This document shows, one piece after another, positions 12,529 through 62,697 of a stretch of DNA of 64,000 nt (the first letter of the stretch is position 1; the number at the start of each line of letters is the position of its first letter). The DNA comes from a virus, in IMG/VR virus record IMGVR_UViG_3300045988_130745. One strand, written 5' to 3'. The notes beneath the pieces were generated by a model. The model did not search any database. It was not told the DNA's origin and saw nothing but the letters and a program-made list of their open reading frames with translations. The translations under genes and the position numbers were made by a program.

Positions 12529-12534
12529 TTTTAT

Positions 12535-12625: not shown

Positions 12626-12632
12626 TTTATAT

Positions 12633-13588: not shown

Positions 13589-13611
13589 GAGGTTTTACCT
13601 CTTTTATATTG

Positions 13612-13909: not shown

Positions 13910-13913
13910 AGAG

Positions 13914-14000: not shown

Positions 14001-14004
14001 TTGC

Positions 14005-14093
14005 GGAGTGAACCAGTCGGGGAACTGGGTACGCCTGCTAAGCGTTACGACAGAGAGATCTGTTTGGGGTCGGCACCCACGCTCCGCGCCATA
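14005..14093 (+). tRNA. tRNA-Ser (GCU), type II
   Basis: Acceptor gcggagt/gctccgc, anticodon loop CTGCTAA, variable-arm hairpin acaga-gaga-tctgt, CCA encoded. T loop GTCGGCA is atypical. Confidence 0.7.
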
Positions 14094-14096
14094 AGC

Positions 14097-14173
14097 ATCT
14101 ATAGGCAAATTGGCAAAGCCGGCACATTTAGGATGTGCTGTTTAAGAGTTCAAGTCTCTTTGGATGCACCAAT
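14097..14173 (+). tRNA. tRNA with UAG anticodon (Leu by anticodon), short variable region
   Basis: Acceptor gcatcta/tggatgc, anticodon stem gcaca/tgtgc with loop TTTAGGA, T loop TTCAAGT, CCA encoded. Shares its D arm with tRNA(CAA) at 1343. Confidence 0.7.
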
Positions 14174-19829: not shown

Positions 19830-20900
19830 ATGGGAATTTTGTTCTCTGTAATAGGAGCACTCGTTGGCGCAATTATAGTTTATATTATAATGCGCAGGCG
19901 CCAAGAAGAAATTAAACAAATCAATAGGGCGCAATTAGAAGCGTTTGATAAAGAAGTTCAAGAGAAAAAGGTAGTTACTTAGCGTTTAATAGATTCTTAT
20001 AATGAATCACTTGAGCGTGCAAAACAAGAAAATAATAAGGCGTTAGAACACGCGAGACGATACAATCAAGAACAATTAAAGCAAGTTCAATCAGATTATT
20101 ATAATAAAGTTCAAGATTATACTAATCAAGCGGAAGAACAAAAGACCTTTCTAAACAGGGATATTGCCGAGCTTCAGGCTAAGATTGTTGCTCTTGAAAA
20201 AGACTATGATCATAAGATTGCTGATTTTGATAGGCAATGGTAGTCTTTGATGAAAGAACGCCGTGAAGCGATGGATAAATTAGAAGAAGAGAATTTGGAT
20301 GATTACCTTGATTAGCAAATGTCTCTTGAATCTCAATATCAAAAGGACAAAGCAAAACTTTAGTCTGAGATCAATAATTTATCTGCTTTGCGCGCGAGCC
20401 TTATTGAAGCGCAAATTCGTGAACAAAAGCTAAAAGATGAACAAGACTTTTATCGTATTCATCTTTCTATTGATGCTCAAGAGGATATTGATAAATTACT
20501 TCGTTTTGCTAAAGAGTGCCACAGTCAACAACCTTTGCGCAAATTGATTTGGAGTGAATACTTCTTAAAGCCTTTCGGTGAAATGGCAGGACGTATCCTT
20601 GGTAAGGACAAAATTTCTGGCATTTACAAGATTACTAATATTAAAGACGGTAAAATATATATTGGGCAGAGTACGGATATAAAAACTCGTTGGTCCAATC
20701 ATATCAAAGCCGCGCTCAAAATAGATTCAATAGCTCATTCAAGAGTCCACGATGCGATGGGTGACGAAGGTATTTGGAACTTTACTTTTGAGTTATTGGA
20801 GCAATGCCCAAAGGAGAAGCTAAATGAGCGAGAGAAATATTACATAGAATTTTATCAATCAAATATCTATGGATATAATAAGACTATTGGTGGAGCTTAA
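19830..20900 (+). CDS. membrane-anchored coiled-coil protein with C-terminal GIY-YIG nuclease domain
   Basis: N-terminal TM helix MGILFSVIGALVGAIIVYIIM, about 180 aa of heptad-like Q/E/K-rich sequence with TAG codons, then GIYKITNIKDGKIYIGQSTDIKTRWSNH. Confidence 0.7.
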
Positions 20901-32327: not shown

Positions 32328-32348
32328 TTATATAAAATTCTTAATGTT

Positions 32349-32380
32349 AGTGCTCTCCATATTGGAGGGCACTTTTATTT
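32349..32380 (+). terminator. intrinsic terminator
   Basis: Stem agtgctctcc/ggagggcact followed by a T-rich run. Confidence 0.65.
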
Positions 32381-32412
32381 TAGAACAAAATTTTTTATAG
32401 GAGGAAATCGCA

Positions 32413-37143: not shown

Positions 37144-37461
37144 ATGGACATAATTACACTTGCGTTGACTCGTAAGGCAGTTAGAGATGCTCACGTTGAC
37201 CATATAGGACCACAAGGACCGGTTGGACCGAAAGGTGAGAAAGGCGATAAAGGTGACCCATTTACTTGGAACGATCTCACTGCGGAGCAAAAGAAAGAAT
37301 TAACTGGTCCAAAAGGTGATAAAGGCGATACAGGTGGAGTTGGCTATGTCTCTTTTGAGAGTGGCAACGATGGACACTTGTACGCCGTTATTGCCGAAGG
37401 GACTGATGAAATCAGTTTCAGAATTTCCGATGATGGTAAGCTGGAGGTAATCTACGCATGA
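37144..37461 (+). CDS. small collagen-like protein
   Basis: 105 aa with [17 protein letters not shown] and [10 protein letters not shown] blocks. Confidence 0.6.
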
Positions 37462-39881
37462 GTAAAAGAATAGATTTAGGCGCAGTAACCGCTTACGCCA
37501 TTGCAGTTAAAAATGGATTTGAAGGCACAGAAGTAGCCTGGCTTGCAAGTCTTAAAGGTGCAAAGGGCGACAGGGGTGAAAAAGGCGAGCAAGGCGCGCC
37601 AGGTATTTAGGGAGAAAGAGGAGCAACTGGTGAAACTGGCCCTATTGGCCCTCAAGGTATCCAAGGACCAAGAGGTGCTCAAGGTGAGAAAGGAGATACT
37701 GGCAATGTCGGCCCAGCTGGTCCTCAAGGACTAAAAGGCGAAACTGGTGCAGTTGGACCAGCTGGGCCGCAAGGTAAGCAAGGCATCCAAGGTGAAAAAG
37801 GTGAAACTGGTGCTGCAGGCGCCCGAGGTGAACAAGGTCCGCAAGGTATTCAAGGCATTCAAGGTCCAAAAGGCGAGAAAGGCGATCCTTTCAGTATAAA
37901 GAAAATTTATGTTTCTGTTGCTGCAATGAATGCTGATTTTGACGGTACTGATACTTCTACTGGTGATTTTGTTCTTATTAACACTGGCAATGTTGCAGAT
38001 GAAGATAATGCAAAGCTCTATGTAAAAGGCGAGAGTGCTTTTACTTTTGTCACTGATTTGTCCGGCGCGGCTGGTATACAAGGTCCGCAAGGTCCTCAAG
38101 GAGTGCAGGGTGTTCAAGGAGAACAAGGTATTCCGGGTGTAAAGGGTGACAAAGGTGATCCAGGCTCTGATGCAACTGTCACTACTGATAATATCACCTC
38201 TGCTCTTGGCTATACTCCCGCAGATTCAACCAAAGTTTACACTAAAACTGAAGTTGACGGAATGATTGATGGTGTTTATGCTCAAGCCGTTCGCAATGCG
38301 ACTTCTGTTGCTCAAGTCAACGGCTTGTTCCAAGAGTGGTGGAAGAAAAATTGGGTTGAAGATACCTCCACCCACACTCAAATGCTTGAGCGTTGGTTTG
38401 GAAATGTTCTTACCAGTAGCAAGGTTTATGGTACCAAGCTACCTTTGTTTGCTACTTCAAATAGTGCAAATGGCGAGTATATTGACGATTCTGTTGGCAT
38501 GACTTGCACTCCTTCAACTAACGCAGTTCTTGGTCAAGATGACTTCGCATTCAAGCCAGAGTTCTGGTGCATCGAAGCATCTGGTGAGCATAATTCTGAC
38601 GGTTCAATTACTATCTATGCTGTTGAATTAATTGATGACATTGCTACCGTTCGTTCTGGCGAGCATTTGACTTGGGTTCTTCAAAAGAATACTTATTGGC
38701 ATGAATATACCAGTGAAGGTTATCATTTCGTCGAACTCAAATCAACTCCTGATGAAACTTGGCATCGTTGGCCGCAAGGTACATCAAAAGATGGTACAGT
38801 TCATGAGTTTATTGCTAACCCGAAGTATTATGCCGGAATGAAAGATGGAACTATTACTGTTGGCACTAATCTTCCTGCAATTAATTTTACTTCTCATCAA
38901 TCTGGCGTTGCTCTATGGCGCAAGCGTGGCAGTCAATACTCTGGCGCGAGTGGCAACCTTATCAAGTTCCTTGATATTATGATGAAGTTAAAGTATGCTA
39001 AGAAAGGTAACTCTGGGACTATTGAAGGTTGTTCAAACTATAACTGGCAATATACTACTCCTGTTGGCGAGACAGGCGTAGAACGTATTATTGTTACTAC
39101 CGCGCAGGGTGCAAATATTAAAGTTGGCTCAACTGTTATTATTGGTAAGAAAGGCGGCTCTACCGATCGTGGCGATAGTGCTATGAGAAGCCTTGTTTCA
39201 ATGAAGAAAGTCAAAAGTTTGGAGCCAGTCACTATTGATGATACTTCTTATACAGCCGTTAATATTGATAATGGCGGAACAACTTTTGATACAGTTGCGA
39301 GTGAGACAATGATTTCTTCTATGCCTTATCACTCTGGATACAATGACAACGTATTAGGTTATGATGGCAGTGCAACTAATTACACCAATGGTTCTGAACC
39401 TGGTTTGCTCCAGAAGATTGAGTTCCAGAATGGTGCTTATCTGATTATTTCAGATGAATTGTGGCAATGGAGCAAAGATGATACAAACTATATGTTTGAT
39501 TGCTATACTTGCCATGATTAGTCAAAAGTTACTACTAATGGAACAATTTCTTCTGACTATACAAAGCAAGCTGATTTGACTTTGAAGTGGGCAGTTGAGG
39601 GTGCTAATACAAGTTGGCACTGGGAATATATTGAAGATACTGCAATCGCTAATGATCCAGCAGTTTGCTGGCCAGCTAAAGTATCCACGACAGCTGGTAG
39701 CGGAACTGGTTGTAAAGCTGGCTTCGGCGTCGCTTTGGCGTCGTCTGGTGTGCGTGCTGGTTGGTGTTTCTGCGGTTTGTGGGGTGGCGGTCTTTGTGGT
39801 GTTTCAGCTCGTAACTCGGACGTTTCTCCTTCGTATTCTGGCTGGTACGGGGCGCTCGGCGGTCCAGGTCTTGCGGGGTGA
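37458..39881 (+). CDS. collagen-like tail fibre protein carrying the DGR variable region at its C-terminus
   Basis: ATGA overlap start. 807 codons in one frame, joining track ORFs 37926-39521 and 39576-39881 through TAG. GXY blocks are present. The last roughly 55 codons are the VR. Confidence 0.8.
39719..39865 (+). repeat. DGR variable repeat (VR)
   Basis: 147 nt align without gaps to 40222-40368. All 19 mismatches I counted sit at adenines of the other copy. Confidence 0.85.
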
Positions 39882-44927: not shown

Positions 44928-45008
44928 ATTTATAGAGTTTGGGAATTGATTCCTACTCTTTTTATACATACCTCTTTCTTTTAGGGAGAAGCAATTCTCC
45001 CTTTATAT

Positions 45009-45092
45009 GCGACTGTGGCCCAGTGGACAAAGGCGGGTGCCTGCAAAGCACTTAATTTTTTATCGTTGGTTCAAATCCAACCAGTCGCTCCA
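45009..45092 (+). tRNA. tRNA-Cys (GCA) with an enlarged variable region
   Basis: Acceptor gcgactg/cagtcgc, anticodon stem ggtgc/gcact with loop CTGCAAA, 12-nt AT-rich variable region, T loop TTCAAAT, CCA encoded. Confidence 0.65.
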
Positions 45093-45104
45093 AGGAGTTT
45101 TGCT

Positions 45105-45881
45105 ATGAAAGATGTAATAGGAATTTATAAAATCACAAATTAGATTTCTGGGAAAGTCTATATCGGGTAGTCTAGGCATATCCATAAAAGATGGCAGGAA
45201 CATTGTTAGCCTTCTTCAGATTCAGTTATTTCAAGAGCTATTAAAAAGTACGGTCAAGAAAATTTTACTTTCGAAATAATTGAAGAATGCCCGTTAGAAT
45301 CGTTAAATGAGAGAGAAGAATTTTATATTAAAAAATATAATTCTTGTGTACCTAATGGCTATAATGTTATGTCTTCTTCAAATGGAATCTAGTCTAAATT
45401 CTTTCTTTTAGAAGAAAAGCAACTAGATAAAGTAATTTAGTTTTTACAAGCTGATGATAAAACCTATTCTCAGATTGCTGATTTAACTGGTTTAGATATT
45501 TCTACTATTTCAAGAATTAATAATGGCGAAATTCATTATAATGAGAATCTTTCTTATCCTATTTCAAAGAGAGATGCTGGTAAATGGTTAAAAGTAAATC
45601 ATTATTGCATTGATTGCGGTACACCCATTTGTCGATAGGCGATCCGTTGTAAAAAATGTAATGTTATATTTTTAACTAAAAATAAAATTTCTAGTCCAAG
45701 ACTTGAATGTCCAGCAAGAGAAATTTTAAAACAGGAAGTATTTTCTTTACCTTTAGAAGCGGTTGGAAGAAAATATGGAGTAACTGGTAGTGCAGTTAAA
45801 AAATGGTTGGGAAAATATAATTTGCCAACTCGGAAAAGTGATATTTCATCTTATTCAAAAGAAGAATGGGATAAATTATAA
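45105..45881 (+). CDS. GIY-YIG homing-endonuclease-like protein (copy c)
   Basis: MKDVIGIYKITN[TAG]ISGKVYIG[TAG]SRHIHKRWQEH. 259 codons with several TAG. Starts 13 nt after tRNA-Cys. Confidence 0.8.
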
Positions 45882-46040
45882 TATGCAGTTAGTGAGTTTG
45901 ACTCTCACCCGCTGCTCCAGAACGGAGTTCCCTATTAGATTTCCAATGGGAATTGAGCTTCACGGTTTGATTGAGTTAGTCCGTCGTCCTCAGTATTGAA
46001 TAGGCAATCAAGAGGAGAAGATACGAAAATTCTTCATTAT

Positions 46041-46116
46041 GCGCGAGTAGTCGAACGGCATAGACACTACGCTAAGGACGTAGGATTTGTGGGTTCAAAT
46101 CCCACCTTGCGCACCA
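46041..46116 (+). tRNA. tRNA with AAG anticodon (Leu by anticodon), short variable region
   Basis: Acceptor gcgcgag/cttgcgc, anticodon stem ctacg/cgtag with loop CTAAGGA, T loop TTCAAAT, CCA encoded. Confidence 0.65.
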
Positions 46117-46134
46117 ATAGGAAGGAGAGTTATT

Positions 46135-46365
46135 ATGGGCAAATTGAAGACGACCAAGATGGTTTATGGTCGAGCAATGGTTGGAACTGATGCTTACAAA
46201 AAGAATTTGTCTAGTAAGCGCTCAAGGCGTAGTGATCAGAAGAGAAAACAAAACTATTGTTCAGCCGCGATTAAAACCAATCTGACTTGGGAACAGAAAC
46301 TAATTCGATGGTTTGAAAAAATTGAGCGCTGGTTTTTAGATTATTTTGAAAGGTTTTTTAATTGA
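46135..46365 (+). CDS. hypothetical basic protein
   Basis: GGAAGGAGAG SD and ATG at 46135, in frame with track ORF 46087-46365. Confidence 0.5.
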   Translation: MGKLKTTKMVYGRAMVGTDAYKKNLSSKRSRRSDQKRKQNYCSAAIKTNLTWEQKLIRWFEKIERWFLDYFERFFN

Positions 46366-46655
46366 TGAAAATTTTGACTGCGCCAGTTGTTAGTTATGAA
46401 GTTCTTCAAGATGATTTGATTCATGCCAACATTATTAAAAGAGAAGATGTTGATAATGATTATTCATACGTCCTTGGTTTGCTTTTTGCTGATAATTGGA
46501 GTTACGATTGCTATTTGAAACTTTATCTAAATGGCAAACCCATTCCAGAGAATCTTGATATAAGCGCAACTGCTTATCTGAAGAAGTGCAATGAGATTTA
46601 TACTTATTTACGCGAGAAGGCTCCGGGTTATGATTTTATTTTGATTGAGACTTAA
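46362..46655 (+). CDS. hypothetical protein
   Basis: 97-aa ORF with an ATGA overlap. Confidence 0.55.
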   Translation: MMKILTAPVVSYEVLQDDLIHANIIKREDVDNDYSYVLGLLFADNWSYDCYLKLYLNGKPIPENLDISATAYLKKCNEIYTYLREKAPGYDFILIET

Positions 46656-46681
46656 AATCTATAAAAAAGTGGGATGAAGTA

Positions 46682-46915
46682 ATGGAACAGACTATATTCT
46701 ATGAGACAGGTTGGTATGAACCTGAGATTTTGGGGTCTGGCGGTTCCTATACCGGAGTTGCAAAAACGACTTCTGAGGAGGAAGCGTTACAACGGTTGTT
46801 GAAATATTCTGCCAATTATGCATATCGTATTACTGTATATAAAAAAGATGGCAAAATCATAAAGCGGGAAATTGCCGAGTATGATCAATGGGAAAAGAGA
46901 TGGAGAGCAACCTGA
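46682..46915 (+). CDS. hypothetical protein
   Basis: 77-aa ORF. Confidence 0.55.
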   Translation: MEQTIFYETGWYEPEILGSGGSYTGVAKTTSEEEALQRLLKYSANYAYRITVYKKDGKIIKREIAEYDQWEKRWRAT

Positions 46916-47015
46916 TGAAGTAGAAATTTATACTGAGTAACGGAGCAATCCATAGAAATTAAAAGTCTTGAAATTTATAATCACTTGTGCGAGAAGGCTT
47001 AAAGAAAGGATTAAA

Positions 47016-47426
47016 ATGAGTAAGAGGAAAAAGAATACTCCTGTAAGTGATTGGGTTTATGATGATTTGATGAATTATTTTGAGTTCTGTTTTGGTGGCG
47101 CTCATGTATTTCGTTCAAATAAAGCGAAGAAGTATCTTTTTGAAATTCTTACTCACGATTCTAACTGGACTGTTGAAAATGTGCATAATGAATATTATGT
47201 TCTTTATCATAATCCAGTTTATCAACCTCGCGCGAAGATTCATGTTCAAGCAAAAGATACCAATTTGATTTGGCTTTTGTGGATTGCATATACGCATGAT
47301 TTCTACAAGTATAACAAACTTCCTTTTGAAAAAGGAAAAGGCAAAGATTATTGGCGTTTCGTTGAAGATTTTAAACACTATCTTACTTATAAAGGTCTTC
47401 ATTGGACAGAAGATGATTTTCAATGA
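47016..47426 (+). CDS. hypothetical protein
   Basis: Internal ATG of track ORF 46968-47426, preceded by AAGAAAGGA. Confidence 0.5.
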   Translation: MSKRKKNTPVSDWVYDDLMNYFEFCFGGAHVFRSNKAKKYLFEILTHDSNWTVENVHNEYYVLYHNPVYQPRAKIHVQAKDTNLIWLLWIAYTHDFYKYNKLPFEKGKGKDYWRFVEDFKHYLTYKGLHWTEDDFQ

Positions 47427-47427
47427 T

Positions 47428-47456
47428 TTGACTTTTGATAGATAATATGCTATAAT
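47428..47456 (+). promoter_or_regulatory. family promoter
   Basis: TTGACT 47428-47433 and TATAAT 47451-47456. The transcript into 47457-47612 has no ORF. Confidence 0.7.
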
Positions 47457-47614
47457 ATTTATAGAAAATGAGATTCATTCGTAGATAAGAATTAAAAATC
47501 GCTAAAGACAATAATGTTGCTCTAATGTGGGAACGTGAAGGCTACGACATATCCGATACTGTTAAACGAAATCCCTATGAGCTTGCGTGAGATTGAAACT
47601 GCTCACCGAATGAA

Positions 47615-47643
47615 TTGACTTTTTATGATTTCTATGATATAAT
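47615..47643 (+). promoter_or_regulatory. family promoter
   Basis: TTGACT 47615-47620 and TATAAT 47638-47643. Confidence 0.75.
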
Positions 47644-47658
47644 ATATATAGAAAATGA

Positions 47659-47725
47659 AAGACAGAAGCAGCAAAATACTTACAATCAGAACTTAAAATT
47701 CTAATATTGGTAAGAAGCTGTCTTG
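47659..47725 (+). ncRNA. stem-CAGCAA element E7a
   Basis: Helix aagacag/ctgtctt, AAGCAGCAAA, 3' G. Confidence 0.5.
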
Positions 47726-47747
47726 ATATGGGATGAAATGAGATTCT

Positions 47748-47817
47748 AAGACGATTTCTGCAAAACTTTTGATGTTTTAACAATATGGATGATAAAACAA
47801 AATGAAAAATCGTCTTG
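47748..47817 (+). ncRNA. stem-CAGCAA element E7b (CTGCAA variant)
   Basis: Perfect helix aagacgatt/aatcgtctt, TCTGCAAA, 3' G. Confidence 0.45.
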
Positions 47818-47828
47818 ATTTTTATTAT

Positions 47829-47903
47829 GGATGGTTCGTACAACGGCTAGTACAAGAGACTGTTAATCTCCTAATGGGGTTTCGACTACCTCACCGTCCG
47901 CCA
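47829..47903 (+). tRNA. tRNA-Asn (GUU)
   Basis: Acceptor ggatggt/accgtcc, anticodon loop CTGTTAA, T loop TTCGACT, CCA encoded. Confidence 0.85.
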
Positions 47904-48026
47904 AGAGCGTTGATGGGACGCTTCTTAATATCCCATTGCCAATAGGGGAGCATTAACGACGGTTAATGAGATTAAGGTGCCTCCACACCGGCCTTATATT
48001 TTATTTATTCTGGAGGAGAATAAATT

Positions 48027-48773
48027 ATGCATAATCCTATTTGTGGTATTTATAAAATTACTAATTTGATTAATGGAAAATGTTACATCGGTTAGAGTGT
48101 GAATATCAAACAAAGATGGAGAGATCATCGTTCAAGGGCCATATCCAAAGGTTCAGAAGGGTTTGAGAGTTATTTTTATCGTTCTATTAGAAAATATGGA
48201 CTAGAGAATTTTTCTTTTGAAATCTTGGAAGAATGTCCTAAAGAATAGTTAAATGAAAAAGAGCAATTTTATATTGCAAAGTATCATTCAAATCAAGAAA
48301 GTTTTGGTTACAATTTAACTGAAGGCGGCGATTCTGTAGGAGGAAAAGCAAAGAAACTTTCTGATAAAGAGTTGCAAAGCATAATTTATGATTTGAAGAA
48401 TACGTTGTTATCATAGGCTGAAATTGGGTAGAAATACCATATTGCTTAGACTACAGTTAGTGGTATTAATCGAGGAGAATTTCGTTATTAGGACAATGAA
48501 ATTTATCCATTAAGGACAAGAAATGTTTTAAAAGAACGTGGTTTTGTTGATGGCTATAAGACTTGCCCAATTTGCGGAAAGAAATTTCAAGGCAAAGCTA
48601 AAACTTGTTCGATTGAATGTGGTAAAATTCGTGTAAGAAAAATAAAAGTAATTCCTAAACGAAGTGCTTTAAAATATCTAATTCGTAATTATTCATTTGA
48701 ATGGATTGGTCATCAATTCGGAGTAAGTAGTAACACAATAAAGAAATATTGTGATAAAGCTAATTTACCTTGA
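48027..48773 (+). CDS. GIY-YIG homing-endonuclease-like protein (copy d), ending at a premature-looking TGA
   Basis: MHNPICGIYKITNLINGKCYIG[TAG]SVNIKQRW. The conserved C-terminal tail (SYSDGEWEKV) continues in frame after the TGA at 48771-48773 up to the TAA at 48822-48824. Confidence 0.75.
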
Positions 48774-48852
48774 ACAAAGACTTTAATCAATTCTTATTCA
48801 GATGGAGAATGGGAAAAGGTTTAAAATTCTGCCAGGTAACTGGCATTTATAT

Positions 48853-48928
48853 GCGCGTGTAGTTTAATGGTAAAATCGCGGACTTTTAATCCGTCAGACT
48901 GGAAGTTCAAGTCTTCTCACGCGCACCA
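48853..48928 (+). tRNA. tRNA-Lys (UUU)
   Basis: Acceptor gcgcgtg/cacgcgc, anticodon loop CTTTTAA, T loop TTCAAGT, CCA encoded. Confidence 0.85.
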
Positions 48929-48961
48929 TTAGCTCGTCTACCATGCGTAGAAAGAGTTTTT

Positions 48962-48987
48962 GAAACCGTTTGCGCGGTTTCTGTTTT
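48962..48987 (+). terminator. terminator-like hairpin between two tRNAs
   Basis: Stem gaaaccg/cggtttc followed by a T-rich run. Confidence 0.4.
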
Positions 48988-48989
48988 AT

Positions 48990-49073
48990 CCCTCATTAGA
49001 CCATAAGGATTGGGGTGGGTCTGTAAAACCCATGCGTTTCGCCGGGATGGTTCGATACCATCATGAGGGACCA
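48990..49073 (+). tRNA. tRNA-Tyr (GUA), type II
   Basis: Acceptor ccctcat/atgaggg, anticodon stem tgggt/accca with loop CTGTAAA, long variable arm, T arm gatgg-TTCGATA-ccatc, CCA encoded. Confidence 0.8.
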
Positions 49074-49096
49074 CTTATTTTAAGAAAGGATATATT

Positions 49097-49381
49097 ATGG
49101 ACTTTTTTGTTGGGAATTTTACTGACTGGTTCAATAGTTATGCTAAGGATAAGTTGTTTCGTCTTTGGTATAAAGAGGACGAAAAACTTGGTCTGGATGA
49201 TGGCTATGATGGAGTTTGTCAGTATGTTTATCTGAGACAGGCAATCAATCTTGGTAACGATTGGTTGATTGGTTATGCTGTATTTGATGAACGCGAAAAG
49301 GATAATATGTATCCTAGTTTGAACTGGGTTAAGTTGAGTGAAATTGATTTAGCTTGGTACAAAGGTGACGAGGAAAAGTAA
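49097..49381 (+). CDS. hypothetical protein
   Basis: 94-aa ORF with an AAGAAAGGA SD. Confidence 0.55.
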   Translation: MDFFVGNFTDWFNSYAKDKLFRLWYKEDEKLGLDDGYDGVCQYVYLRQAINLGNDWLIGYAVFDEREKDNMYPSLNWVKLSEIDLAWYKGDEEK

Positions 49382-49395
49382 TTTCCTCATTTTAT

Positions 49396-49471
49396 GGCTC
49401 TGTAGTTCAGTGGCTAGAACAGCGGACTGTCTCTCCGAAGGTCGGGAGTTCGAATCTCCCCAGAGTCGCCA
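49396..49471 (+). tRNA. tRNA-Asp (GUC)
   Basis: Acceptor ggctctg/cagagtc, anticodon loop CTGTCTC, T loop TTCGAAT, CCA encoded. Confidence 0.8.
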
Positions 49472-49741
49472 ATGTAGTTCGGAAGGACTACGAGCCTTGC
49501 GCCTAGGAGATAAGGCGTCAAACTCGCGAGGTTTGGACCTAGATAAGTCGTTAAAAACTGTCCAGTCAACACCGCTAAGACTAGTAAATTTGCGGAGACC
49601 GAGATAGGATGGATTCGAGGTAAACTACCACCGGCGCTTAGCGATATGTGGCTTAGTCATTTGGAATCGGTCTATAAAACAAAGAAAACGAAAGTAACCT
49701 CCAATGGACGTGAGGGATAGTCTGAAAACTCCCTCTTATAT

Positions 49742-49816
49742 GTGCGAGTGGTATAACGGCAATTATTCCTGCCCTCCAAGCAGGTGACGAGGGTTCGACT
49801 CCCTTTTCGCACACCA
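49742..49816 (+). tRNA. tRNA, probably Gly (UCC), with C at position 33
   Basis: Acceptor gtgcgag/ttcgcac, anticodon stem cctgc/gcagg with loop CCTCCAA, T loop TTCGACT, CCA encoded. D arm is weak. Confidence 0.5.
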
Positions 49817-54999: not shown

Positions 55000-55245
55000 A
55001 TGGAAAAAGATTATTTTAAAATATCTCGTAATGAATTAAGGCGACTTCTTATCTTAGAAATGTATTTTGATGCAATTATAAAATTATCTCCTGTTGGAGA
55101 TTTTTATGGAGAATTGTATAAAAATACAACTGGAGAAGAATTAGAAGAAGAGCTTTCTCAAGATGAATGTCGAGAAAAAGCAAATATGGCGGTTGAAGAG
55201 AAATCTTCAGAAATTATAAGAACTAAATTTGAGAGCTTAGAGTAA
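55000..55245 (+). CDS. hypothetical protein (paralog of 60694-60993)
   Basis: DFYGELYKNTTGEELEEE parallels DFYGEIYRGLTGEELTIP in the other copy. Confidence 0.55.
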   Translation: MEKDYFKISRNELRRLLILEMYFDAIIKLSPVGDFYGELYKNTTGEELEEELSQDECREKANMAVEEKSSEIIRTKFESLE

Positions 55246-55262
55246 AATCTAAGCTCTTTTTT
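55233..55262 (+). terminator. intrinsic terminator
   Basis: Stem agagcttag/ctaagctct followed by T6. Confidence 0.65.
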
Positions 55263-55289
55263 GACATAAACATAATTTTATGTTATAAT
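55261..55289 (+). promoter_or_regulatory. sigma70-type promoter of cluster B (TTGACA variant)
   Basis: TTGACA 55261-55266, 17-nt spacer, TGTTATAAT. Lacks the family ATTTATAGAAA tail. Confidence 0.65.
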
Positions 55290-55311
55290 GATTATAAAAG
55301 GGGTGAAACAA

Positions 55312-55848
55312 ATGGCTTGGACTTAGGGTGGGGCAATAGGAGCTTCTGAAGTTAATAATTGGTATACTAGTCTTAATAAAACTATTGGAAGTTATGGCGG
55401 TGGAATTGCATAGCTATCTAATCCTATAAGAGCGGGAAGAGACGTATATGCTTCTGATTTAAATAATTTAATAACTAAATTAAACGAATTAAAAAGAGAC
55501 GAATATTTAAGCTAGGCAAGTTATGGTAGTTATAGCTCAGTTTCTGTTGGATAGATTATTCGCGCATCAGATTGGACTGGAATAAATTCAAGTATTTCTA
55601 GTTTGACTGGTGTAAAATGTCGGAATAGAGCTACTTATACAAATGGCGCATCTACAACTACTAATGGTAATGGAGTATGTCGGCAAGGCTATGATAGTAA
55701 TGGAACAGATTAGAATGGCGGAATGTGGGCGAATACTTGCACGAACGGTTGGTATGATAATTCTTCAAATTCTCATGGCACAAATAGCGCTAGTCCAAAT
55801 CGTAATGGCAGTAGGGTAGATATATGGTGTCAAAATAGCACGGGGTAA
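55312..55848 (+). CDS. Gly/Ser/Asn-rich protein with C-terminal Cys residues (candidate substrate of cluster B)
   Basis: 178 aa, with six in-frame TAG, so invisible in the ORF track. GASEVNNWYTSL and IRASDWTGINSSI echo EASDWNNLADAY of the protein at 5978-6625. C-terminal region has 5 Cys among N/G/S/T. Confidence 0.6.
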
Positions 55849-55850
55849 AA

Positions 55851-57197
55851 ATGAATAAAAAAGATACTGCAATTTTTTATAGCTGCGGAATTTGTAATTT
55901 AAATTGCAATTATTGCTGTATAGATAAAAATCCAATTTTGAAAGAGATAGATAAAGAATTAGGAGAAAGTTTTTAGGGAGACTATTATTTTAATCAAGTA
56001 AAAAAATATTTCCCATTACCAGGTTCTCTTCGCCAAATTGAAACTTGGGGAGGCGAACCATTTTTAAAAATGGAACGAATGCATAATTTAATTCGTCAAT
56101 TATGCGATTATTATTTTTATTTTAATAGTTTTTATAGTTCTACAAATTTCTCATTTCCTCAATGGGCAGATAAAGTTTTAGATCTATTGAAGGTTTTTGG
56201 GGAATTTTCTCCGCGTCGCTTTACGATACATTTACAGCTTTCTATTGACGGACCAGAATATATTAATGACAGAAATAGAGGCATTGGGACTACTCAAAAA
56301 TGTTTAAATAATTTTAATATTTTGATTTCTCGTTTGCCAAATGAGTTGCCTAAAAATATAAATTTGATAATTACAACTAAAGAAACTTTAGATAATTCTT
56401 CTATTATGGCTTTAGATTCTAAAAATAAAGTCATAGAATATTATCAATTTATTGAAAATAATTTTATTAGAAAAATAGATTTACTTAATTTGGACAATGT
56501 TAAAATAGAATTTTGTATTCCTAATACAGCAGATCCTTCTCCAGTTACAAAAGAAATAGGAAAGCATTTTGCAAATATCTGTAAATGGTGCAGAGAAATA
56601 GAACAAGAAAATGAAAAATATGGCTATTTTAGATATTATAAATCAATTACTCCTTTTTCTTAGAATGTTGACAATTTAAAATTGTCTTATAATTATCCAA
56701 ATTACACTTGCGGGACTGGTTATAATATGATTGGATTTTTACCGAATAATATGATTGCTAGTTGTCATGAAAGTTTTGTTTACTTAATTGAAAAATATAA
56801 AGATTTTGCAAAAGAATAGATGTCAACTGAAGTAGATAAAACCATTAATTTTAATAATTTTATTTCTAATTGTAATGCTTGTAAAATGTGTATGTCCGAG
56901 AAAAATTTCCCTGAGCATGAAAGATGTATGTCGTATTATAATCAATCTAATACGATGTTTAGATTAGCAAATATTACAAATGAAATTATGTGTTTAGCAT
57001 TGGCAAAACAAATAGATCCTAAATATGCTGAAGAAGAAAAAGCTCTTTCTGCGGCGATTTATCTTCAATCCGCTACCGCTTACTGTATAAAAAATAATTA
57101 TGAAATGACAGGAAGCTATAGTTTAGTTTCAGATGGGATATTAAAATTATTATTTAACGGAGCAGCAGATATTATTGAGGGAATAAATGATGTATAA
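55851..57197 (+). CDS. radical SAM enzyme B1
   Basis: YSCGICNLNCNYCC gives the CxxxCxxC motif and WGGEPFL is present. Track ORFs 56070-56663 and 56820-57197 are in frame (449 codons) and join through TAG. Confidence 0.75.
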
Positions 57198-58606
57198 CGC
57201 AATAACAAACAAAAGAATATATCAAGAAGAGCAAAATGAATTATTATATAATCTTTTGTAGAAAAGATTTTTTCAATTCTGGGAAAAACCTGAACTTTTC
57301 CAAGATAATACTTCTTTGAGTAATAATTCTAATATAGAACTATTTATTACTCCATATTGTAACCAATCTTGTTCTTATTGTTATTTAGTTAAATATCCAG
57401 AATTATATCCTAAAGGAATTTCGAATGATAAAATTTTAGAAAATTTAAAAATTTTTTTAAATTGGATTAACGAAAAAAATTTTTATCTTCCCGATATTGA
57501 TTTATTTTCTGGAGAAATTTGGCATACAAAATTAGGTTTTGATATTTTAGATATAATTTTAGATTATTGTAAAAATAATAAATTAAAAATTAAGCAATTA
57601 ATGATTCCAACAAATGGAACGTTTTTAAAATCAGATGAAACTTTTTATAAAATGCAAAATTTTATAGATGATTTTAAAGAAATAGGCGTTCGGCTTTGTA
57701 TTTCTTTATCAATTGATGGAGCAATTATAGAAAATAAAACACGTCCTTTGAATAATAAAGAATTAAAAACAGATTCTTTTTATGAGAGAGCTTTTGCATT
57801 TGCTAAATATAATAATTTTGCCTTTCATCCAATGATAAGTGCGGTTTCTGTAAAAGACTGGGTGGAAAATTATAAATGGTGGAAATCAGAATGTAAAAAA
57901 TATGATTTGAATATTTATGATTTAATGATGCTAGAAGTGAGAAATAGTGATTGGACAGAAGAATCAATTCAAGATTATAATCATTTTTTAAATTTTTTAT
58001 TACAAGATTTTTTATCTGATTGTAAATCTGTTGATGAAGCAGTTCAATGTCTATTCAATTTAAGTCCTTCTATAAAAAAATCAATAAATTTAAACAATAA
58101 TAATTATTTACCCTATGCTATTACTAAAAGTAATACATATCCTGCTTGTACTATTGCCACACACCTCTGTGTAAGGTTAGGAGATTTAGCTATTTCTCCA
58201 TGCCATAGAGCTGGATATGAAAAAAAATATTTATGGATATTTTCAAATTGAAAACAATAGAATTGTTGGTATAAAAGCGAATAACCCTTATATGGCAATG
58301 AGAATTTTATTTGGTAATAATACTATTTGTTCTCCAAAATGTGACACTTGCGATTTTAATAAAGTTTGTTTACAAGGCTGTTTTGGCGCGCAAATGGAAT
58401 ATAATCAAGATCCTTTTATGCCAATCCCCGAAGTATGCACTTTCTTTAAAAGTAAATATATTAATCTTGTAAGACAATATAAAAAATTAGGGATTTTAAA
58501 TGCTTTAGAAAAATATCATTCTTTAGAATGCATCCAATATCCTATGGCACATTTTGTTTTAAATTTTTGCAATGGAGTGCTAGATAAATATGGCATGGAA
58601 TCTTGA
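57187..58606 (+). CDS. radical SAM / SPASM enzyme B2, split by a frameshift in an A8 run
   Basis: ELFITPYCNQSCSYCY gives the CxxxCxxC motif. The C-terminal CDTCDFNKVCLQGC (SPASM-like) lies in track ORF 58217-58606, in the next frame. Removing one A at 58220-58227 fuses ...SPCHRAGYEK to NIYGYFQIENN... Confidence 0.65.
58220..58227 (+). repeat. homopolymer A8 at the B2 frameshift site
   Basis: Read directly from the sequence. Confidence 0.9.
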
Positions 58607-58886
58607 CACTATTTTTAATTTAGGTCCTATATTTTCTTTAGAATATGGCAATATTACTAAAGAAGATTTTGTAAATTAGGATATTAAAAGTATGTCTTTT
58701 GATTGTTGTACTCTTGAAAGACAAATGCTAGGAAGTATCGAACGGACTTTTATAAAAGAGGATGGCACAGTTAAAAGGGAAAAGGTTTATAATCTCTATC
58801 CAGAAGGAGCATTAAAGCAATCTTCAAGGTGCCTGAACGCATTTGGGGAAACCGTTTTTAATTGGGAGAATAAAAATGAATTTTAA
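58590..58886 (+). CDS. hypothetical small protein of cluster B
   Basis: ATG at 58590. One TAG joins it to track ORF 58692-58886. 98 aa. Confidence 0.4.
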
Positions 58887-60636
58887 TTTTAATACGAAAT
58901 ATAAAGCAAGAACTCCAGAAGATACAATTTCTATAGTAAAACATTTTTTCGAGGGAAGAGGTTATACCCTTACAGAAGTTACTTTTTAGACTGAGGCTGG
59001 CACATGGACGGTTCATATTGAACTTTTTGATAAAGGATTTTATATTCTTCAATCTAATGGAAAGGGCATGACTAAATTATTTAGTTTGGCTAGTGGATAT
59101 GCTGAACTATATGAACGTTATTGCAATATGCATCCTATTCTTTCCAATAGAATTTTCCAGAAAAGATTTTTCAATAGTAATTTTGAGAAAAACGGTTTTT
59201 ATTTTTAGAAAGGAGAAAAAGAAATTTCTTATACAGAAATGTTCCAGTCGAACCCAGAAATTAAAGACTTTTTTTATAAAATTTTAAAAACCCCTCAAAA
59301 TGTTCAAAGATTTTTTAAAGAAAGTTTTAATAATAAATTCATTGGAGTTCCTTTTGTTTCGACTAAAAATGATTCAGATATTATTTATATAGACCCAAGA
59401 ATTTCCGCTTTAATTTGGACTTCAATTGGATTAGCTGCAGGAAATAGTATTGAAGAAGCATTAACTCAAGGCCTTTCTGAAATTTGTGAAAGAATTGGTT
59501 TGGTAAATTTTTATTTTAAACCTCAAGAACGATTTTATGCTATAGATTTAACTAAAATTAAAAATAAAGATTTAAAAGATAAAATAGATAAAATTAATAA
59601 AGCTGGATATTTATTTTATGTTATTGATTTATCCTATAATTTTAATGTCCCTACTTTAATGTCTATTTTGATTGATCCAATAAGTTTACTTACATCAGTT
59701 GATTTTGGTTCTTATCCAGTCTTTAATATTGCTTTTGAAAGAGTAATTACAGAAATTTATCAAGGTGTTGCGACTTTTAAAAATAAAGAAATTAATATCC
59801 AAACACCTTATTCTCCTAATGGAGCAATTGGATTTTTAAATAGTGCATTAAATAATATTTCAGAAGCTAATAGTATTGATGAAAATTTCTTTTCTAAAGT
59901 TACTTTTGTAGAATCTTGCAATAAAAAAATTTTTTTAGAAGAAGCTATAGATTTTTCGTCATTGATAAAATATTTAAATAATATTTTCGATAATCTTGGA
60001 TATAAATGTTATTATGCAAATATGAGCTTATCAAAAGATATTGCTGCTATTCGTATTAATGTTCCTGGATTATATTTAATGAATGAAAAAATTGAACTTT
60101 TAAGTAAAGCTAGTTCTTTGATTGTAGAAGATTGTTTGGATATAATTAAAAATATTAACAATAACATGGATAAATTGCTTTCTTTGAACGAAAATGTTAC
60201 TTCGGACGAATTAAAAGAAATTTATCAATGTTTTTATAAAATATCTGATAAACAAGAATCTATGCCACCTATTACAGGAGCAATTATTGGGACTTTACTT
60301 TTTTCTAATCCTTATATGGTTTTTGGACAAAGTAATAGTAATATAATTCATTCTTTAAAAAATTGGCCGGATATTTTTCTTTTTGAATATAAACATTCGT
60401 ATTGGATGCCTGATTTAAAGAAATATTTAACTTTAGTAAGATATAAACAAAATAAATGCTATTCTAAAGAATAGACAATTAACTTTTTTGCTGCTCTAGG
60501 AAGTTATATTTCAGAAGAAGATTATGATAATGCTTTAAATTCAGATTATATTTTTTCTCAAATCTTTATTAACGGGACTTTAAAATTATATTACAGTTCT
60601 TTTTATGACGAACTTATTTAGAAGTTTCTTTATTGA
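58876..60636 (+). CDS. YcaO-domain protein
   Basis: NGKGMTKLFSLASGYAELYERY and SIGLAAGNSIEEALTQGLSEICERIG match the two YcaO ATP-binding signature regions. In frame with track ORF 59239-60474. Extends through TAG codons at both ends to the TGA at 60634-60636. Confidence 0.75.
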
Positions 60637-60661
60637 CTTTTCTCTAATCTTATGCTATAAT
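60633..60661 (+). promoter_or_regulatory. family promoter
   Basis: TTGACT 60633-60638 (contains the YcaO stop) and TATAAT 60656-60661. Confidence 0.75.
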
Positions 60662-60693
60662 TATTATAGAAAATGAGGAAAGGAAATGAGATT

Positions 60694-60993
60694 ATGAGCG
60701 AAAAGAATTATGAGACTAAATGGCATACTGTTCGTGAATCTTATCTTCGAATGCTTATTGGTAAAGCCATGAAATATGACATTCTTATGGATGATTTTTC
60801 TAAAATCGAAATCAATAGTGAAGATTTTTATGGTGAAATTTATCGAGGTTTAACTGGTGAGGAACTCACTATTCCCAATGATCAAGCTCACTTTATCAAG
60901 CGCGTAAATTTCGTCAATGGCGAAATCATCAAGCAGACCGATGAGACTCTTGAAAAACTTGATCTTGCCGCTAAGAAACACGGATTTGAATAA
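60694..60993 (+). CDS. hypothetical protein (paralog of 55000-55245)
   Basis: An internal ATG aligns with the paralog N-terminus. Confidence 0.55.
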   Translation: MSEKNYETKWHTVRESYLRMLIGKAMKYDILMDDFSKIEINSEDFYGEIYRGLTGEELTIPNDQAHFIKRVNFVNGEIIKQTDETLEKLDLAAKKHGFE

Positions 60994-61022
60994 TTGACTT
61001 TTCTTCAAATCTATGCTATAAT
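60994..61022 (+). promoter_or_regulatory. family promoter
   Basis: TTGACT 60994-60999 and TATAAT 61017-61022. Drives a long non-coding leader and then a tRNA array. Confidence 0.75.
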
Positions 61023-61029
61023 ATTTATA

Positions 61030-61508
61030 GAAAGTTAAGGAAAGATTACTTAATTTTTACGACAGTTTTGTTGGCAGACACTTCACTGAGCAAAAAAATG
61101 TGAGCTGCTAGGTTTTACGAGAGGGGTCACAGGCTACCAGAAATGGAGCTGAACCGAGCCAAACCTCCTAACGCAGAAGTTGCGTTCATAAATTACTTGT
61201 AATCTTAGCCTAAAGTGACAGGGTGCTAAAAGATTACTTCGCCACTCTTAATTGAGTGGTAAGGTTCGCTATAATTGATACCTCCACGCGGTGCGAACTG
61301 GACAATCTGATGAACTTGGAAGTCAGATTGACGAAAATCAATAGACATGAAAGACGAAATGAATACAAGCTCTCTTTCGTCAGTTAAATTGCACCAGCTT
61401 CGATGGTAGAATGGATTAACGTTCTGATAATTGTCGGCGCAATGCGCATCTACGGCACGGGTAAAGACGTCCCTTGCAAAAGCAATTAGACCATGTCGTT
61501 TTTATTAT
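61030..61508 (+). ncRNA. about 480-nt non-coding transcript segment between a promoter and tRNA-Glu (candidate large structured RNA)
   Basis: No ORF in any + frame even with TAG as sense. GC is above local background. Multiple hairpins, for example gacgaaa...tttcgtc. Confidence 0.3.
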
Positions 61509-61587: not shown

Positions 61588-61662
61588 ACTTCCGTAGTCT
61601 AACGGTTAGGACACGGTCCTGATAAGGCCGATACACTAGTTCAACTCTAGTCGGAAGTACCA
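61588..61662 (+). tRNA. tRNA-Ile (GAU)
   Basis: Acceptor acttccg/cggaagt, anticodon stem cggtc/ggccg with loop CTGATAA, T loop TTCAACT, CCA encoded. Confidence 0.85.
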
Positions 61663-61796
61663 GTTGCGTGACAGTCGTAGAACTCCTATCGGCTGTTTAA
61701 AAAACTAGGGTAGGACTTATGAGTGGAGTTCGCTTGTAAGACGCGCGAGAAAACGTCGCCCAGAGTATTTGCTTCAAAGTCACTCGCGCATTATAA

Positions 61797-61874
61797 CGGC
61801 CAGTAAAGGAAATGGCTAAACTTACTTCCCTCTCAAGGAAGAATTTGGCGGTTCAAATCCGCCCTGGTCGACCA
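61797..61874 (+). tRNA. tRNA with CUC anticodon (Glu by anticodon), poor D arm
   Basis: Acceptor cggccag/ctggtcg, anticodon stem cttcc/ggaag with loop CTCTCAA, T arm ggcgg-TTCAAAT-ccgcc, CCA encoded. Confidence 0.5.
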
Positions 61875-62056
61875 AGGTGTTGATACCTGCAAGCCTCAAG
61901 AAACGATTTAATAGGATACTAGTTACCTATTGAATTAAAGTATTGAGAAACTACAAATCAAAAGATACGTTGTGGAACGGGAATGATACTAACCGGAAAG
62001 CGTAAATCGTATTAGAGAAAAATGGTCTGGAACTCTTTAAATTATCGGACTACCGA

Positions 62057-62132
62057 GCTGGAGTGGCGCAATTGGTAGCGCAGCTGATTTGTAATCAGAA
62101 GGTTGCGGGTTCAAGTCCTGTTTCCAGCACCA
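62057..62132 (+). tRNA. tRNA-Thr (UGU)
   Basis: Acceptor gctggag/ttccagc, D arm gcgc-aattggta-gcgc, anticodon loop TTTGTAA, CCA encoded. Confidence 0.8.
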
Positions 62133-62136
62133 TTAT

Positions 62137-62211
62137 GCGTTTGTAGTTCAATGGAAGAATCGCAGACTCTTAATCTGTCAGATGCAGGTTCAAATCCTGT
62201 CAAGCGCACCA
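62137..62211 (+). tRNA. tRNA-Lys (CUU)
   Basis: Acceptor gcgtttg/caagcgc, anticodon loop CTCTTAA, T loop TTCAAAT, CCA encoded. Confidence 0.8.
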
Positions 62212-62215
62212 TTTA

Positions 62216-62338
62216 AAGACCATCACAGCATCTGAAATTGGCTTGTAACCCGCTTGTCGTCGAGTTCGATTCTCGACAGTATCTTCTCTTAAATGGGAAC
62301 ACTTAGCTCAGTGGTAGAGCAGCGTATTGTTGGTCTTG
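62216..62338 (+). ncRNA. stem-CAGCA element E8 enclosing a circularly permuted tRNA-like module
   Basis: Helix aagacca/tggtctt and CACAGCA. T arm gtcgag-TTCGATT-ctcgac, imperfect acceptor tcttctc / loop ttaaat / gggaaca, canonical D arm tagctcagtggtagagca. Confidence 0.45.
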
Positions 62339-62344
62339 TCTTAT

Positions 62345-62419
62345 GCGCTCATAGTTCAACGGAGAGAATATTGGTCTACGAAACCAAAGATGGAAGTTCG
62401 ATTCTTCTTGGGCGTACCA
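62345..62419 (+). tRNA. tRNA-Arg (ACG)
   Basis: Acceptor gcgctca/tgggcgt, anticodon stem ttggt/accaa with loop CTACGAA, T loop TTCGATT, CCA encoded. Confidence 0.8.
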
Positions 62420-62493
62420 CTTGTAATTTCTACGAATCTTATACAAATCTCCTTGTCGTTTGCGGCTCGACGCTAATAAAGCCGCACTCCTAT

Positions 62494-62570
62494 GCGGCTG
62501 TAATTCAGTTGGATAGAATATCGGACTTCTAATCCGAAAGCCAAGAGTTCAAGTCTCTTCAGCCGTACCA
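62494..62570 (+). tRNA. tRNA-Arg (UCU)
   Basis: Acceptor gcggctg/cagccgt, anticodon stem tcgga/tccga with loop CTTCTAA, T loop TTCAAGT, CCA encoded. Confidence 0.85.
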
Positions 62571-62620
62571 TTTTATCCTTTCTATCGTTCTGGCGCGATG
62601 AAAATAATGCCAGATTTTAT

Positions 62621-62697
62621 ACGGTTGTAGCTTAATAGGATAAAGCTGCGTGATTCCTAATCCGTCTATACCAGTTCAAATCTGGTCAGCCGTTCCA
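62621..62697 (+). tRNA. tRNA, probably Arg (CCU), with a bulge in the anticodon stem
   Basis: Acceptor acggttg/cagccgt, loop TTCCTAA if one stem nucleotide is bulged, T loop TTCAAAT, CCA encoded. Close relative of the Arg(UCU) gene. Confidence 0.55.

Follow-up and report, generated by a model that had tools for sequence, protein, structure and literature searches.

The 64,000-nucleotide stretch of viral DNA analysed here (IMG/VR record IMGVR_UViG_3300045988_130745, referred to below as the window) carries five co-directional open reading frames (ORFs) at positions 55261-60636 once TAG is read through. We consider it probable that together they form a phage-encoded maturation cassette, similar to those of RiPPs (peptides that are made by the ribosome and modified after translation), that is directed at the protein encoded by its own first gene. 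All five lie on the plus strand. B0, the putative substrate of 178 amino acids (aa; 55312-55848), is followed by the radical S-adenosylmethionine (SAM) enzyme B1 (55851-57197; 448 aa), the radical SAM/SPASM enzyme B2 (57190-58606; 471 aa after repair of its frame), the putative small accessory protein B3 (58590-58886; 98 aa), which overlaps both B2 and the last gene, and the standalone YcaO enzyme B4 (58876-60636; 586 aa). Neighbouring genes are either separated by a 2-nt gap or overlap by 8-17 nt, and the enzyme genes have a GC content of 25-27%, compared to 36% for the window. An initial annotation, made from the DNA alone, had described the same five genes as one operon; all of them were found, with the reservation that B2 is interrupted by a run of eight adenines.

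The operon starts from a promoter of its own (55261-55289, plus strand), of which the TTGACA-N17-TATAAT boxes match the sigma-70-type consensus at all 12 positions and are complemented by an extended -10 TG. Directly upstream, abutting the -35 box, a terminator-like hairpin with an 11-bp stem and a T-run (55231-55260, plus strand; RNAfold -15.9 kcal/mol), which was missed by a simple scan, is predicted to insulate the operon from upstream genes. The window contains 20 promoters of the form TTGAC[TA]-N17-TATAAT, all on the plus strand, against 0.21 expected by chance; examples are found at 1047-1086, 8812-8851, 60633-60672 and 60994-61033. Sixteen of these 20 are followed by the tail ATTTATAGAAA, an element that might act as a regulatory or 5'-leader sequence common to them. 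While the operon promoter is the sole TTGACA variant among the 20, it is not the only one without the tail, since three others lack it as well.

If TAG is treated as a sense codon, the ORFs longer than 100 aa in the window add up to 21,630 residues instead of 12,842, and the window is part of a large phage that uses TAG in this way. Every gene of the operon contains in-frame TAG codons (5, 3, 1, 1 and 4 in B0 to B4), and these 14 codons would need a suppressor tRNA to be read; ARAGORN predicts one with anticodon CTA at 3558-3633 (plus strand). That TAG encodes glutamine is supported by the alignment of three of the four TAG codons of the YcaO gene (38, 533 and 582) with CAA/CAG codons in relative L002, of which the YcaO is 73% identical, whereas an alignment of the suppressor tRNA with phage tRNA-Gln was uninformative. 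Under the standard code, the region reduces to a row of fragments. It had been proposed that standard annotation would therefore miss the operon entirely, and that recoding may explain why such systems are undescribed, but the first proposal is overstated and the second does not hold: a 411-aa YcaO fragment survives, public protein sets contain full-length homologs tagged PF02624, and two related loci (L018 and L013) carry few or no in-frame TAGs.

A standalone YcaO and two radical SAM enzymes

The assignment of B4 as a YcaO enzyme withstands profile search, with PF02624 matching residues 61-399 at E = 3e-33 (score 116 bits, gathering score 25.7) and TIGR00702 also scoring above its cutoff (82.6 against 75.65). 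Its ATP site is intact: the ATP/Mg-binding residues E77, E80, R81, N190, E202, E205, E288, R289 and E293 do not vary among 53 members of the family and align with the motifs of E. coli YcaO. E. coli YcaO (4Q84) is the best match in the PDB, and the best-scoring NCBIfam family is likewise NF040716, the S12 accessory factor, although the 90.8 bits reached lie far from its equivalog cutoff of 700. The closest cellular relative found by BLASTP is the YcaO of a Bacteroidaceae locus (L032; 29% identity over aa 9-399, E = 2e-30), while the last ~190 aa of B4 have no detectable relative beyond the phage clade in the same type of search.

What B4 would catalyse is harder to say, and our confidence in any specific chemistry is low. 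As the initial annotation had noted, no E1-like/ThiF, TfuA or dehydrogenase partner is present: profile scans of the five operon proteins found none, and the two flanking genes, checked against PHROGs only, gave no match. Because these partners are missing from the operon, the chemistry of B4 is not assignable to the azoline or TfuA classes. It could be argued that the YcaO nevertheless cyclodehydrates Cys, Ser and Thr residues of B0, as in canonical azoline systems (thiazole/oxazole-modified microcins or linear azol(in)e-containing peptides), given that the B0 loop is rich in these residues and that the ATP site is preserved. We regard this as very unlikely. Besides the absence of an E1-like/Ocin-ThiF partner and a flavin mononucleotide-dependent dehydrogenase, the SagD model TIGR03604 scores only 34.4 against a cutoff of 219, the C-terminus (...YDELIQKFLY) lacks the Pro-rich motif that is a mark of azoline-forming YcaO enzymes, and the nearest cellular relatives found are a Bacteroidaceae YcaO from an Itf-like cluster and the E. 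coli-type YcaO. The McrA-thioamide model TIGR03266 also remains below its cutoff (39.8 against 365). TfuA-independent thioamidation does exist, however, which makes thioamide chemistry compatible with the lack of TfuA. As the YcaO stands alone, an amidine or a thioamide would be more likely than an azoline.

For B1 and B2, the radical SAM identity that had been read from the sequence is borne out by their cysteines, even though PF04055 scores below its gathering threshold of 29.5 bits (22.7 for B1 and 23.3 for B2, with E about 1e-4; 1.3e-4 for B1). The CX3CX2C motif (C15/C19/C22 in B1 and C57/C61/C64 in B2) is invariant in 13-14 homologs, and the two proteins match phrog_1802 at 1e-6 and 1e-13. 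In B1, a SAM-binding GGE motif (WGGEP) and Cys 287, 305 and 412 are also invariant in homologs; these three additional cysteines may hold a single, twitch-like auxiliary cluster. Its best NCBIfam matches are the cyclophane-type maturases YhhB/XyeB (1e-5 to 1e-6). B2 carries the seven-Cys SPASM signature of two auxiliary clusters (C320, C338, C384, C387, C393, C397 and C416, including CX2CX5CX3C) that is invariant in all 13 homologs, with TIGR04085 (SPASM) at 16.2 against a cutoff of 27. Once repaired, it matches the NCBIfam PapB family NF047865 over its full length and across the repaired junction (E = 1e-12), at 48 bits where the equivalog cutoff for membership is 340. None of the NCBIfam matches of B1 and B2 is a methylthiotransferase family, all being RiPP-type maturases, MoaA or viperin. 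A phmmer search of both against PDB sequences returned nothing useful.

The repair of B2 concerns the A8 homopolymer at 58220-58227 (plus strand), which introduces a +1 break of the frame; removal of one A results in the 471-aa protein. Two relatives, L055 (YcaO 96% identical) and L002, carry A7 at this position and an intact B2 of 472 aa. The eighth A represents either an error in the homopolymer or a genuine mutation that inactivates the gene. Programmed frameshifting at this site is unlikely, as the relatives have an in-frame A7. A different kind of interruption was observed in a homolog of B2 (L008, 12750-15200; identical to L030), where an intein with Hint and LAGLIDADG domains interrupts CX3CX2C precisely at its third Cys.

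B3 and the N-termini of the enzymes had been put forward as places to look for a PqqD-like RiPP recognition element (RRE). No match to the PqqD Pfam model was found in any of them, although the N-terminal domains of related bacterial radical SAM enzymes likewise gave none. The CX3CX2C motifs of B1 and B2 begin at residues 15 and 57, which leaves no room for an N-terminal RRE. For B3, a single-sequence AlphaFold (AF2) model is too uncertain to be used, with a predicted local distance difference test (pLDDT) score of 41, and hhalign against the bacterial radical SAM N-terminal domains gave a probability of 0.15%; the idea that B3 is an RRE was set aside for want of support. A word-indexed search with B3 gave two near-identical matches. 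B3 homologs were found after B2 in about 9 lineages, and other lineages carry an unrelated acidic helical protein in its place.

The B0 family and its divergence together with the enzymes

B0 is, as described initially, rich in Gly, Ser, Asn and Thr (48%) with its cysteines towards the C-terminus, all four of them (Cys 103, 123, 143 and 173) lying within the last 76 residues. It can be divided into a Cys-free, three-helix head (aa 1-101; 55312-55614), a K-C-R-N anchor containing the invariant Cys103 (aa 102-105; 55615-55626), a variable loop (aa 106-165) and a closing strand near the conserved C-terminal end (aa 166-171; 55807-55824), all on the plus strand. B0 has no matches in Pfam, NCBIfam or PHROG, and a single-protein scan of IMG/VR found nothing. 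An exhaustive profile search, on the other hand, collected 156 cluster representatives of 36-372 aa including fragments, 124 of which are at least 150 aa long, and which form a new family. Throughout this family, a head of ~100 aa with 0.1% Cys is closed by C[RK]N in 105 of the 124 full-length members, mostly as KCRN, and is followed by a tail of 54-265 aa consisting for 56% of Asn, Ser, Gly and Thr and for 6% of Cys (median of 5 Cys), which has a conserved strand, x-[IV]-D-[IVL]-x-[NC], at its end. The tails repeat with a period of 5, as [N/H]-G-T-X-S in which Cys takes the place of X. Around their cysteines, G-T-C-S-N-G is an enriched context (z = 11-21), and Cys-Cys spacings peak at 4-5 and 9-10. 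In the B0 homolog of L006, the tail is expanded to some 15-20 repeats that contain Cys, of which about ten are Cys-X3-Asp. Cys103 is a candidate modification site for the family as a whole.

In an AF2 model of B0 built on a 76-sequence alignment, the three helices reach pLDDT values of 85-93, and exactly two strands are predicted, one directly after KCRN and one at the C-terminus, with the variable region between them modelled at low confidence. We infer that these strands pair as a hairpin that clamps the loop. Foldseek found no structural neighbour for the model in the PDB and a single marginal match in the viral library BFVD, to an uncharacterised gut Myoviridae protein; the predicted fold is novel.

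Support for B0 as the substrate of the enzymes comes from a comparison with relative L003. The backbone flanking the cassette is 85-98% identical between the two phages, whereas identity falls to 48-71% from ~55620, the KCRN junction, to ~60640, the YcaO stop. At the protein level, the heads are 88% identical, compared to 40% for the tails, 47-61% for the enzymes and 22% for B3. Since the divergence starts exactly at the junction of head and loop and ends at the YcaO stop, the loop and the four genes that follow it form a single exchangeable or fast-evolving unit. Such co-divergence is what an enzyme-substrate relationship would predict.

Conserved linkage of the genes, the absence of which in relatives would have refuted the reading of the initial annotation by its own account, was found from both the YcaO and the B0 side. 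The order B0-B1-B2-B3-YcaO is kept at 96%, 73% and 47% YcaO identity. At 30-35% identity it is shuffled (e.g. YcaO-B0-B1-B2), with B0 homologs of up to 442 aa and with GT2/GT8 glycosyltransferases or a C39-like peptidase added near some of these distant versions. Both radical SAM genes accompany the YcaO gene in 16 of 20 distinct phage lineages, and B0 does so in 13-14 of 20, the exceptions being mostly on truncated contigs. Starting from distant B0 homologs, B1 is the next gene in all five sampled and YcaO a neighbour in four of the five; B0 directly adjoins B1 in every lineage examined. One lineage (L060, 8001-11600) carries B0-B1-B2 without a YcaO within 8 kb, so that B0 and the two radical SAM genes form the core, with YcaO as a near-constant addition. 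The radical SAM ORFs of this locus break when only TAG is read through, hinting at a different genetic code.

The host contigs are mostly viral contigs of 130-240 kb. When deposited phage genomes were searched at the DNA and protein level, nothing emerged save E. coli ycaO on a prophage-like record. Among bacterial genome records, a full-length match was obtained only for a contig that is binned with a Faecalibacterium metagenome-assembled genome and proves identical to the phage locus L008. In true cellular relatives, the similarity is to the N-terminal YcaO domain, at 24-32% identity, and several of these relatives are located in classical RiPP clusters.

Within the lineage of the window itself, the cassette seems less secure. 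In L001, a deletion corresponding to window positions 55342-59819 (at ~10000 of the locus) places B0 codons 1-10 in frame ahead of the YcaO sequence from residue 316 onwards (aa 316-586), with a 12-nt repeat encoding GAIG at the junction. In L012, window positions 55290-59329 are removed (likewise at ~10000 of the locus), joining the -10 box to YcaO residue ~153. These two are close relatives from one metagenome, and their deletions have different endpoints and arose independently at short repeats, by microhomology. Because of these two deletions and the A8 frameshift, we conclude that the cassette is dispensable and unstable in this lineage, yet conserved across the wider clade. Could the copy in the window then be a decaying, non-functional remnant of a family that is possibly real elsewhere? 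The split of B2 by A8, where L055 and L002 have A7, and the losses in the sister genomes would fit with this. Conversely, the remaining ORFs are all unbroken and share 94-98% identity with those of the intact L055 copy, a single-base difference in a homopolymer is a common sequencing or assembly error, and slippage on the A-tract could bypass the frameshift. A remnant is therefore possible, though we think it rather unlikely.

Relation to known maturation systems

RiPP-type chemistry, familiar from bacteria, has hardly been reported in phages other than as bacteriocin cargo carried by temperate ones (bioRxiv 2020.10.01.322628), and in the literature we found no description of a phage system combining a radical SAM enzyme, a radical SAM/SPASM enzyme, a YcaO and B0. 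The combination of radical SAM and YcaO enzymes as such does have a precedent in the Itf pathway of Bacteroides thetaiotaomicron and in related RiPP clusters of Bacteroidales. In the Itf pathway, the radical SAM enzyme ItfD and the standalone YcaO ItfB act on one ribosomal product, and what ItfB forms is a backbone amidine, with ammonia as the source (PMC11002830, PMC10352776). The operon resembles this pathway in pairing radical SAM enzymes with a YcaO that lacks a partner, and its nearest cellular YcaO relative, that of L032, comes from a locus with Itf architecture (radical SAM genes, a B12-radical SAM gene, a PCAT exporter, an outer-membrane protein and YcaO). However, the short GG-leader peptide, the C-terminal I-T-F motif, the PCAT exporter/protease and the TonB-type transporter of Itf systems are all absent from the operon, in which the substrate would instead be a 178-aa protein with a folded head, and the C-terminal ~190 aa of the YcaO are unrelated.

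A second likeness is to SPASM maturases that work, paired or single, on tails with periodic cysteines: the PapB/freyrasin ranthipeptides (Cys-X3-Asp), the TIGR04115 CXXX-repeat systems and CefB (Cys at every fifth position). PapB is the best curated match of B2, and the B0 family displays period-5 cysteines, with Cys-X3-Asp in L006. These systems differ in having no YcaO, and in their short precursors with conventional leaders and their RRE-bearing enzymes, and B1 and B2 remain far below all curated cutoffs. The full combination of enzymes is present in clusters of Clostridia. In Candidatus Limiplasma (L043), a Nif11-leader precursor with a Cys-rich core (GGCYHGDPNC..., containing CYHGD) is followed by three radical SAM/SPASM genes and a YcaO. 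Here, the differences are the Nif11 leader, a ~95-aa N-terminal extension on each radical SAM enzyme that is absent from B1 and B2, and a YcaO of just 23% identity, and these clusters are themselves uncurated and unstudied. The chromosomal locus as a whole (L043, 2307-15608) holds the Nif11 precursor, four radical SAM/SPASM genes, two YcaO genes, a B12-radical SAM gene and a further radical SAM gene. Lastly, proteusins and other RiPPs with large leaders (NHLP, Nif11) share with B0 a large N-terminal domain ahead of the modified region, and the thioglycine of McrA is a YcaO modification on a substrate of protein size. In B0, however, the modified region would be a loop closed by a C-terminal strand rather than a free tail, its head matches no family or fold, and TfuA is missing.

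E. coli YcaO deserves separate attention, as it is likewise 586 aa long, has the same ATP-binding residues and provides the best PDB and NCBIfam matches of B4. It has been discussed as a protein-modifying enzyme (PMC7550191). As the accessory factor of S12 methylthiotransferase and a candidate uL16 thioamidase, it is considered to target whole proteins, in one of these cases alongside a radical SAM enzyme. Its identity to B4 is 25% and limited to the N-terminal 300 residues, and its genomic context is another one. Still, the action of E. coli YcaO with the radical SAM enzyme RimO on ribosomal protein S12, and the proposed uL16 thioamide, offer a precedent for enzymes that modify some other target, be it a protein, of the host or of the phage, or a molecule of another kind, with B0 merely co-travelling as a structural or effector protein. 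That no RRE or leader-like recognition element was found, and the high conservation of the B0 head relative to the enzymes, would agree with this, and the glycosyltransferases in some lineages could mean other substrates. We nonetheless hold such an arrangement to be improbable. The S12 family score falls far short of its cutoff, neither B1 nor B2 matches a methylthiotransferase, B0 is always next to B1, the Cys-repeat loop co-diverges with the enzymes from a breakpoint exactly at the head/loop junction, and the cellular cousins are RiPP clusters linked to a precursor. DNA hypermodification by radical SAM enzymes and glycosyltransferases was rejected on similar grounds: there is no glycosyltransferase in the operon of the window, B0 is always adjacent, its loop co-diverges, and the cousins modify peptides.

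Maturation of B0 by the enzymes encoded next to it thus remains the reading that we favour, though several observations weigh against it. The family assignments of both radical SAM enzymes lie far under curated cutoffs, and the best curated match of B4 is of a type that acts on a ribosomal protein, not on the product of a neighbouring gene. No RRE was found for the operon. The loop of the window's own B0 has just 3 Cys beyond the anchor, without a regular repeat or a regular C-X3-D, and the head is more conserved than the enzymes, which is atypical for a disposable leader. Profile scans detected no leader protease or exporter in the operon, and an immunity gene is also absent. Given the deletions in sister genomes and the B2 frameshift, the copy in the window may be inactive. 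Moreover, everything proposed on the chemistry is inferred. The earlier suggestion of a multiply modified RiPP or protein fares well as regards B0 being the substrate, which the co-divergence of the loop and the RiPP-cluster cousins support, and less so as regards the modification itself. A precursor adjacent to and co-diverging with its enzymes, as in RiPP clusters, is indeed found here, and the operon would work like a radical SAM and YcaO RiPP pathway while falling within no curated family. It is set apart from known systems by a putative substrate whose fold is new and whose loop is predicted to be clamped, the lack of a protease, an exporter and a recognisable RRE, a phage-specific YcaO C-terminus and its home in large phages.

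How might such a cassette function? A host-type promoter drives five translationally coupled genes in which TAG is read as Gln. We propose that the three-helix head of B0 carries a beta-hairpin, formed by a strand after K-C-R-N and the x-[IV]-D-[IVL] end, and that this hairpin holds a hypervariable loop in which Cys, Asn, Gly, Ser and Thr abound. In this loop, B1 and B2 would make radical cross-links, most likely Cys thioethers comparable to those of sactipeptides and ranthipeptides, while the YcaO would use ATP to activate a backbone amide of B0, most likely yielding an amidine or thioamide and not an azoline. B3 could serve as an accessory or adaptor protein, replacing the RRE domains that are fused to the radical SAM enzymes of the bacterial cousins. 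With neither a protease nor an exporter, the product would probably be the whole modified protein of ~18 kDa, a stapled loop on a conserved scaffold, acting within the infected cell or leaving it at lysis. The swapping and divergence of the cassette and its recurrent loss suggest a role in conflict, whether with host defence, rival phages or competitors, but this is a guess.

What appears in any case is a clade of 130-240 kb gut phages that keeps a dedicated radical SAM, radical SAM/SPASM and YcaO cassette with a new substrate family. More tentatively, and with greater doubt than we attach to the maturation of B0 as such, these might constitute a new class of phage-native, protein-scale RiPPs, in which a conserved three-helix scaffold bears a stapled, YcaO-edited loop that is swapped together with its enzymes, as an evolvable binding or antagonist module in conflicts of phages with hosts or with other phages; this would also be the first YcaO maturation system native to large, apparently lytic phages, as opposed to one borrowed by a prophage. 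If so, it would resemble other hypervariable targeting proteins, with the diversity here being fixed by enzymatic cross-linking. For enzymology, it would provide a standalone YcaO that acts on a folded protein and belongs to a clade related to E. coli YcaO and to the YcaO of an Itf-like Bacteroidaceae cluster, as well as two divergent radical SAM maturases without RRE domains, and could help with the long-open question of the function of E. coli-type YcaO. Furthermore, the swap-and-delete pattern is typical of conflict genes and would provide a lead towards a new phage weapon or counter-defence.

Cluster A and other features of the window

A second RiPP-like system, cluster A, is located at 3753-8810. 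Its 215-aa protein (5978-6625) combines a head resembling that of B0 with a tail in which every fourth residue is Cys (a CXXX repeat). The alignment of the two heads is co-linear but weak (hhalign E = 6e-4, probability 30%). The gene is flanked by radical SAM/SPASM genes at 4607-5974 and 7530-8810, which match TIGR04115 at 2e-80 and 5e-59, below its 350-bit cutoff. The arrangement of a folded head, a Cys-repeat tail and paired radical SAM enzymes therefore occurs twice in this phage. Other TAG-rich ORFs in the window were considered as paralogs of B0 and rejected, being apparently GIY-YIG homing endonucleases instead. By eye, these paralogous ORFs with GIY-YIG-like motifs are recognised at 1907-2629, 12794-13588, 44946-45881 and 48027-48773, and the C-terminal end of the ORF at 19830-20900 resembles them as well. 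They sit among tRNA genes and contain up to 13 in-frame TAGs in 240 codons.

The window has 28 tRNA genes in three arrays (1122-14171, 45009-49816 and 61588-62697), the CTA suppressor included. To one odd tRNA-like gene (62621-62697), ARAGORN assigned an anticodon of two bases. The small genes on either side of the cassette, at 55000-55245 and 60673-60993, look paralogous by eye, both containing FYGE[LI]Y..TGEEL, so that the cassette would sit between duplicated genes. Proteins of ~800 aa encoded at 32344-34770 and 37458-39881 have long collagen-like G-x-y repeats and are presumably fibres. Finally, opposite the gene for a TROVE/Ro-like RNA-binding protein (10404-11972; phrog_850, E = 3e-131), the minus strand holds an open frame of 547 aa with zero TAG (10413-12056), which is unusual for a genome with 36% GC.

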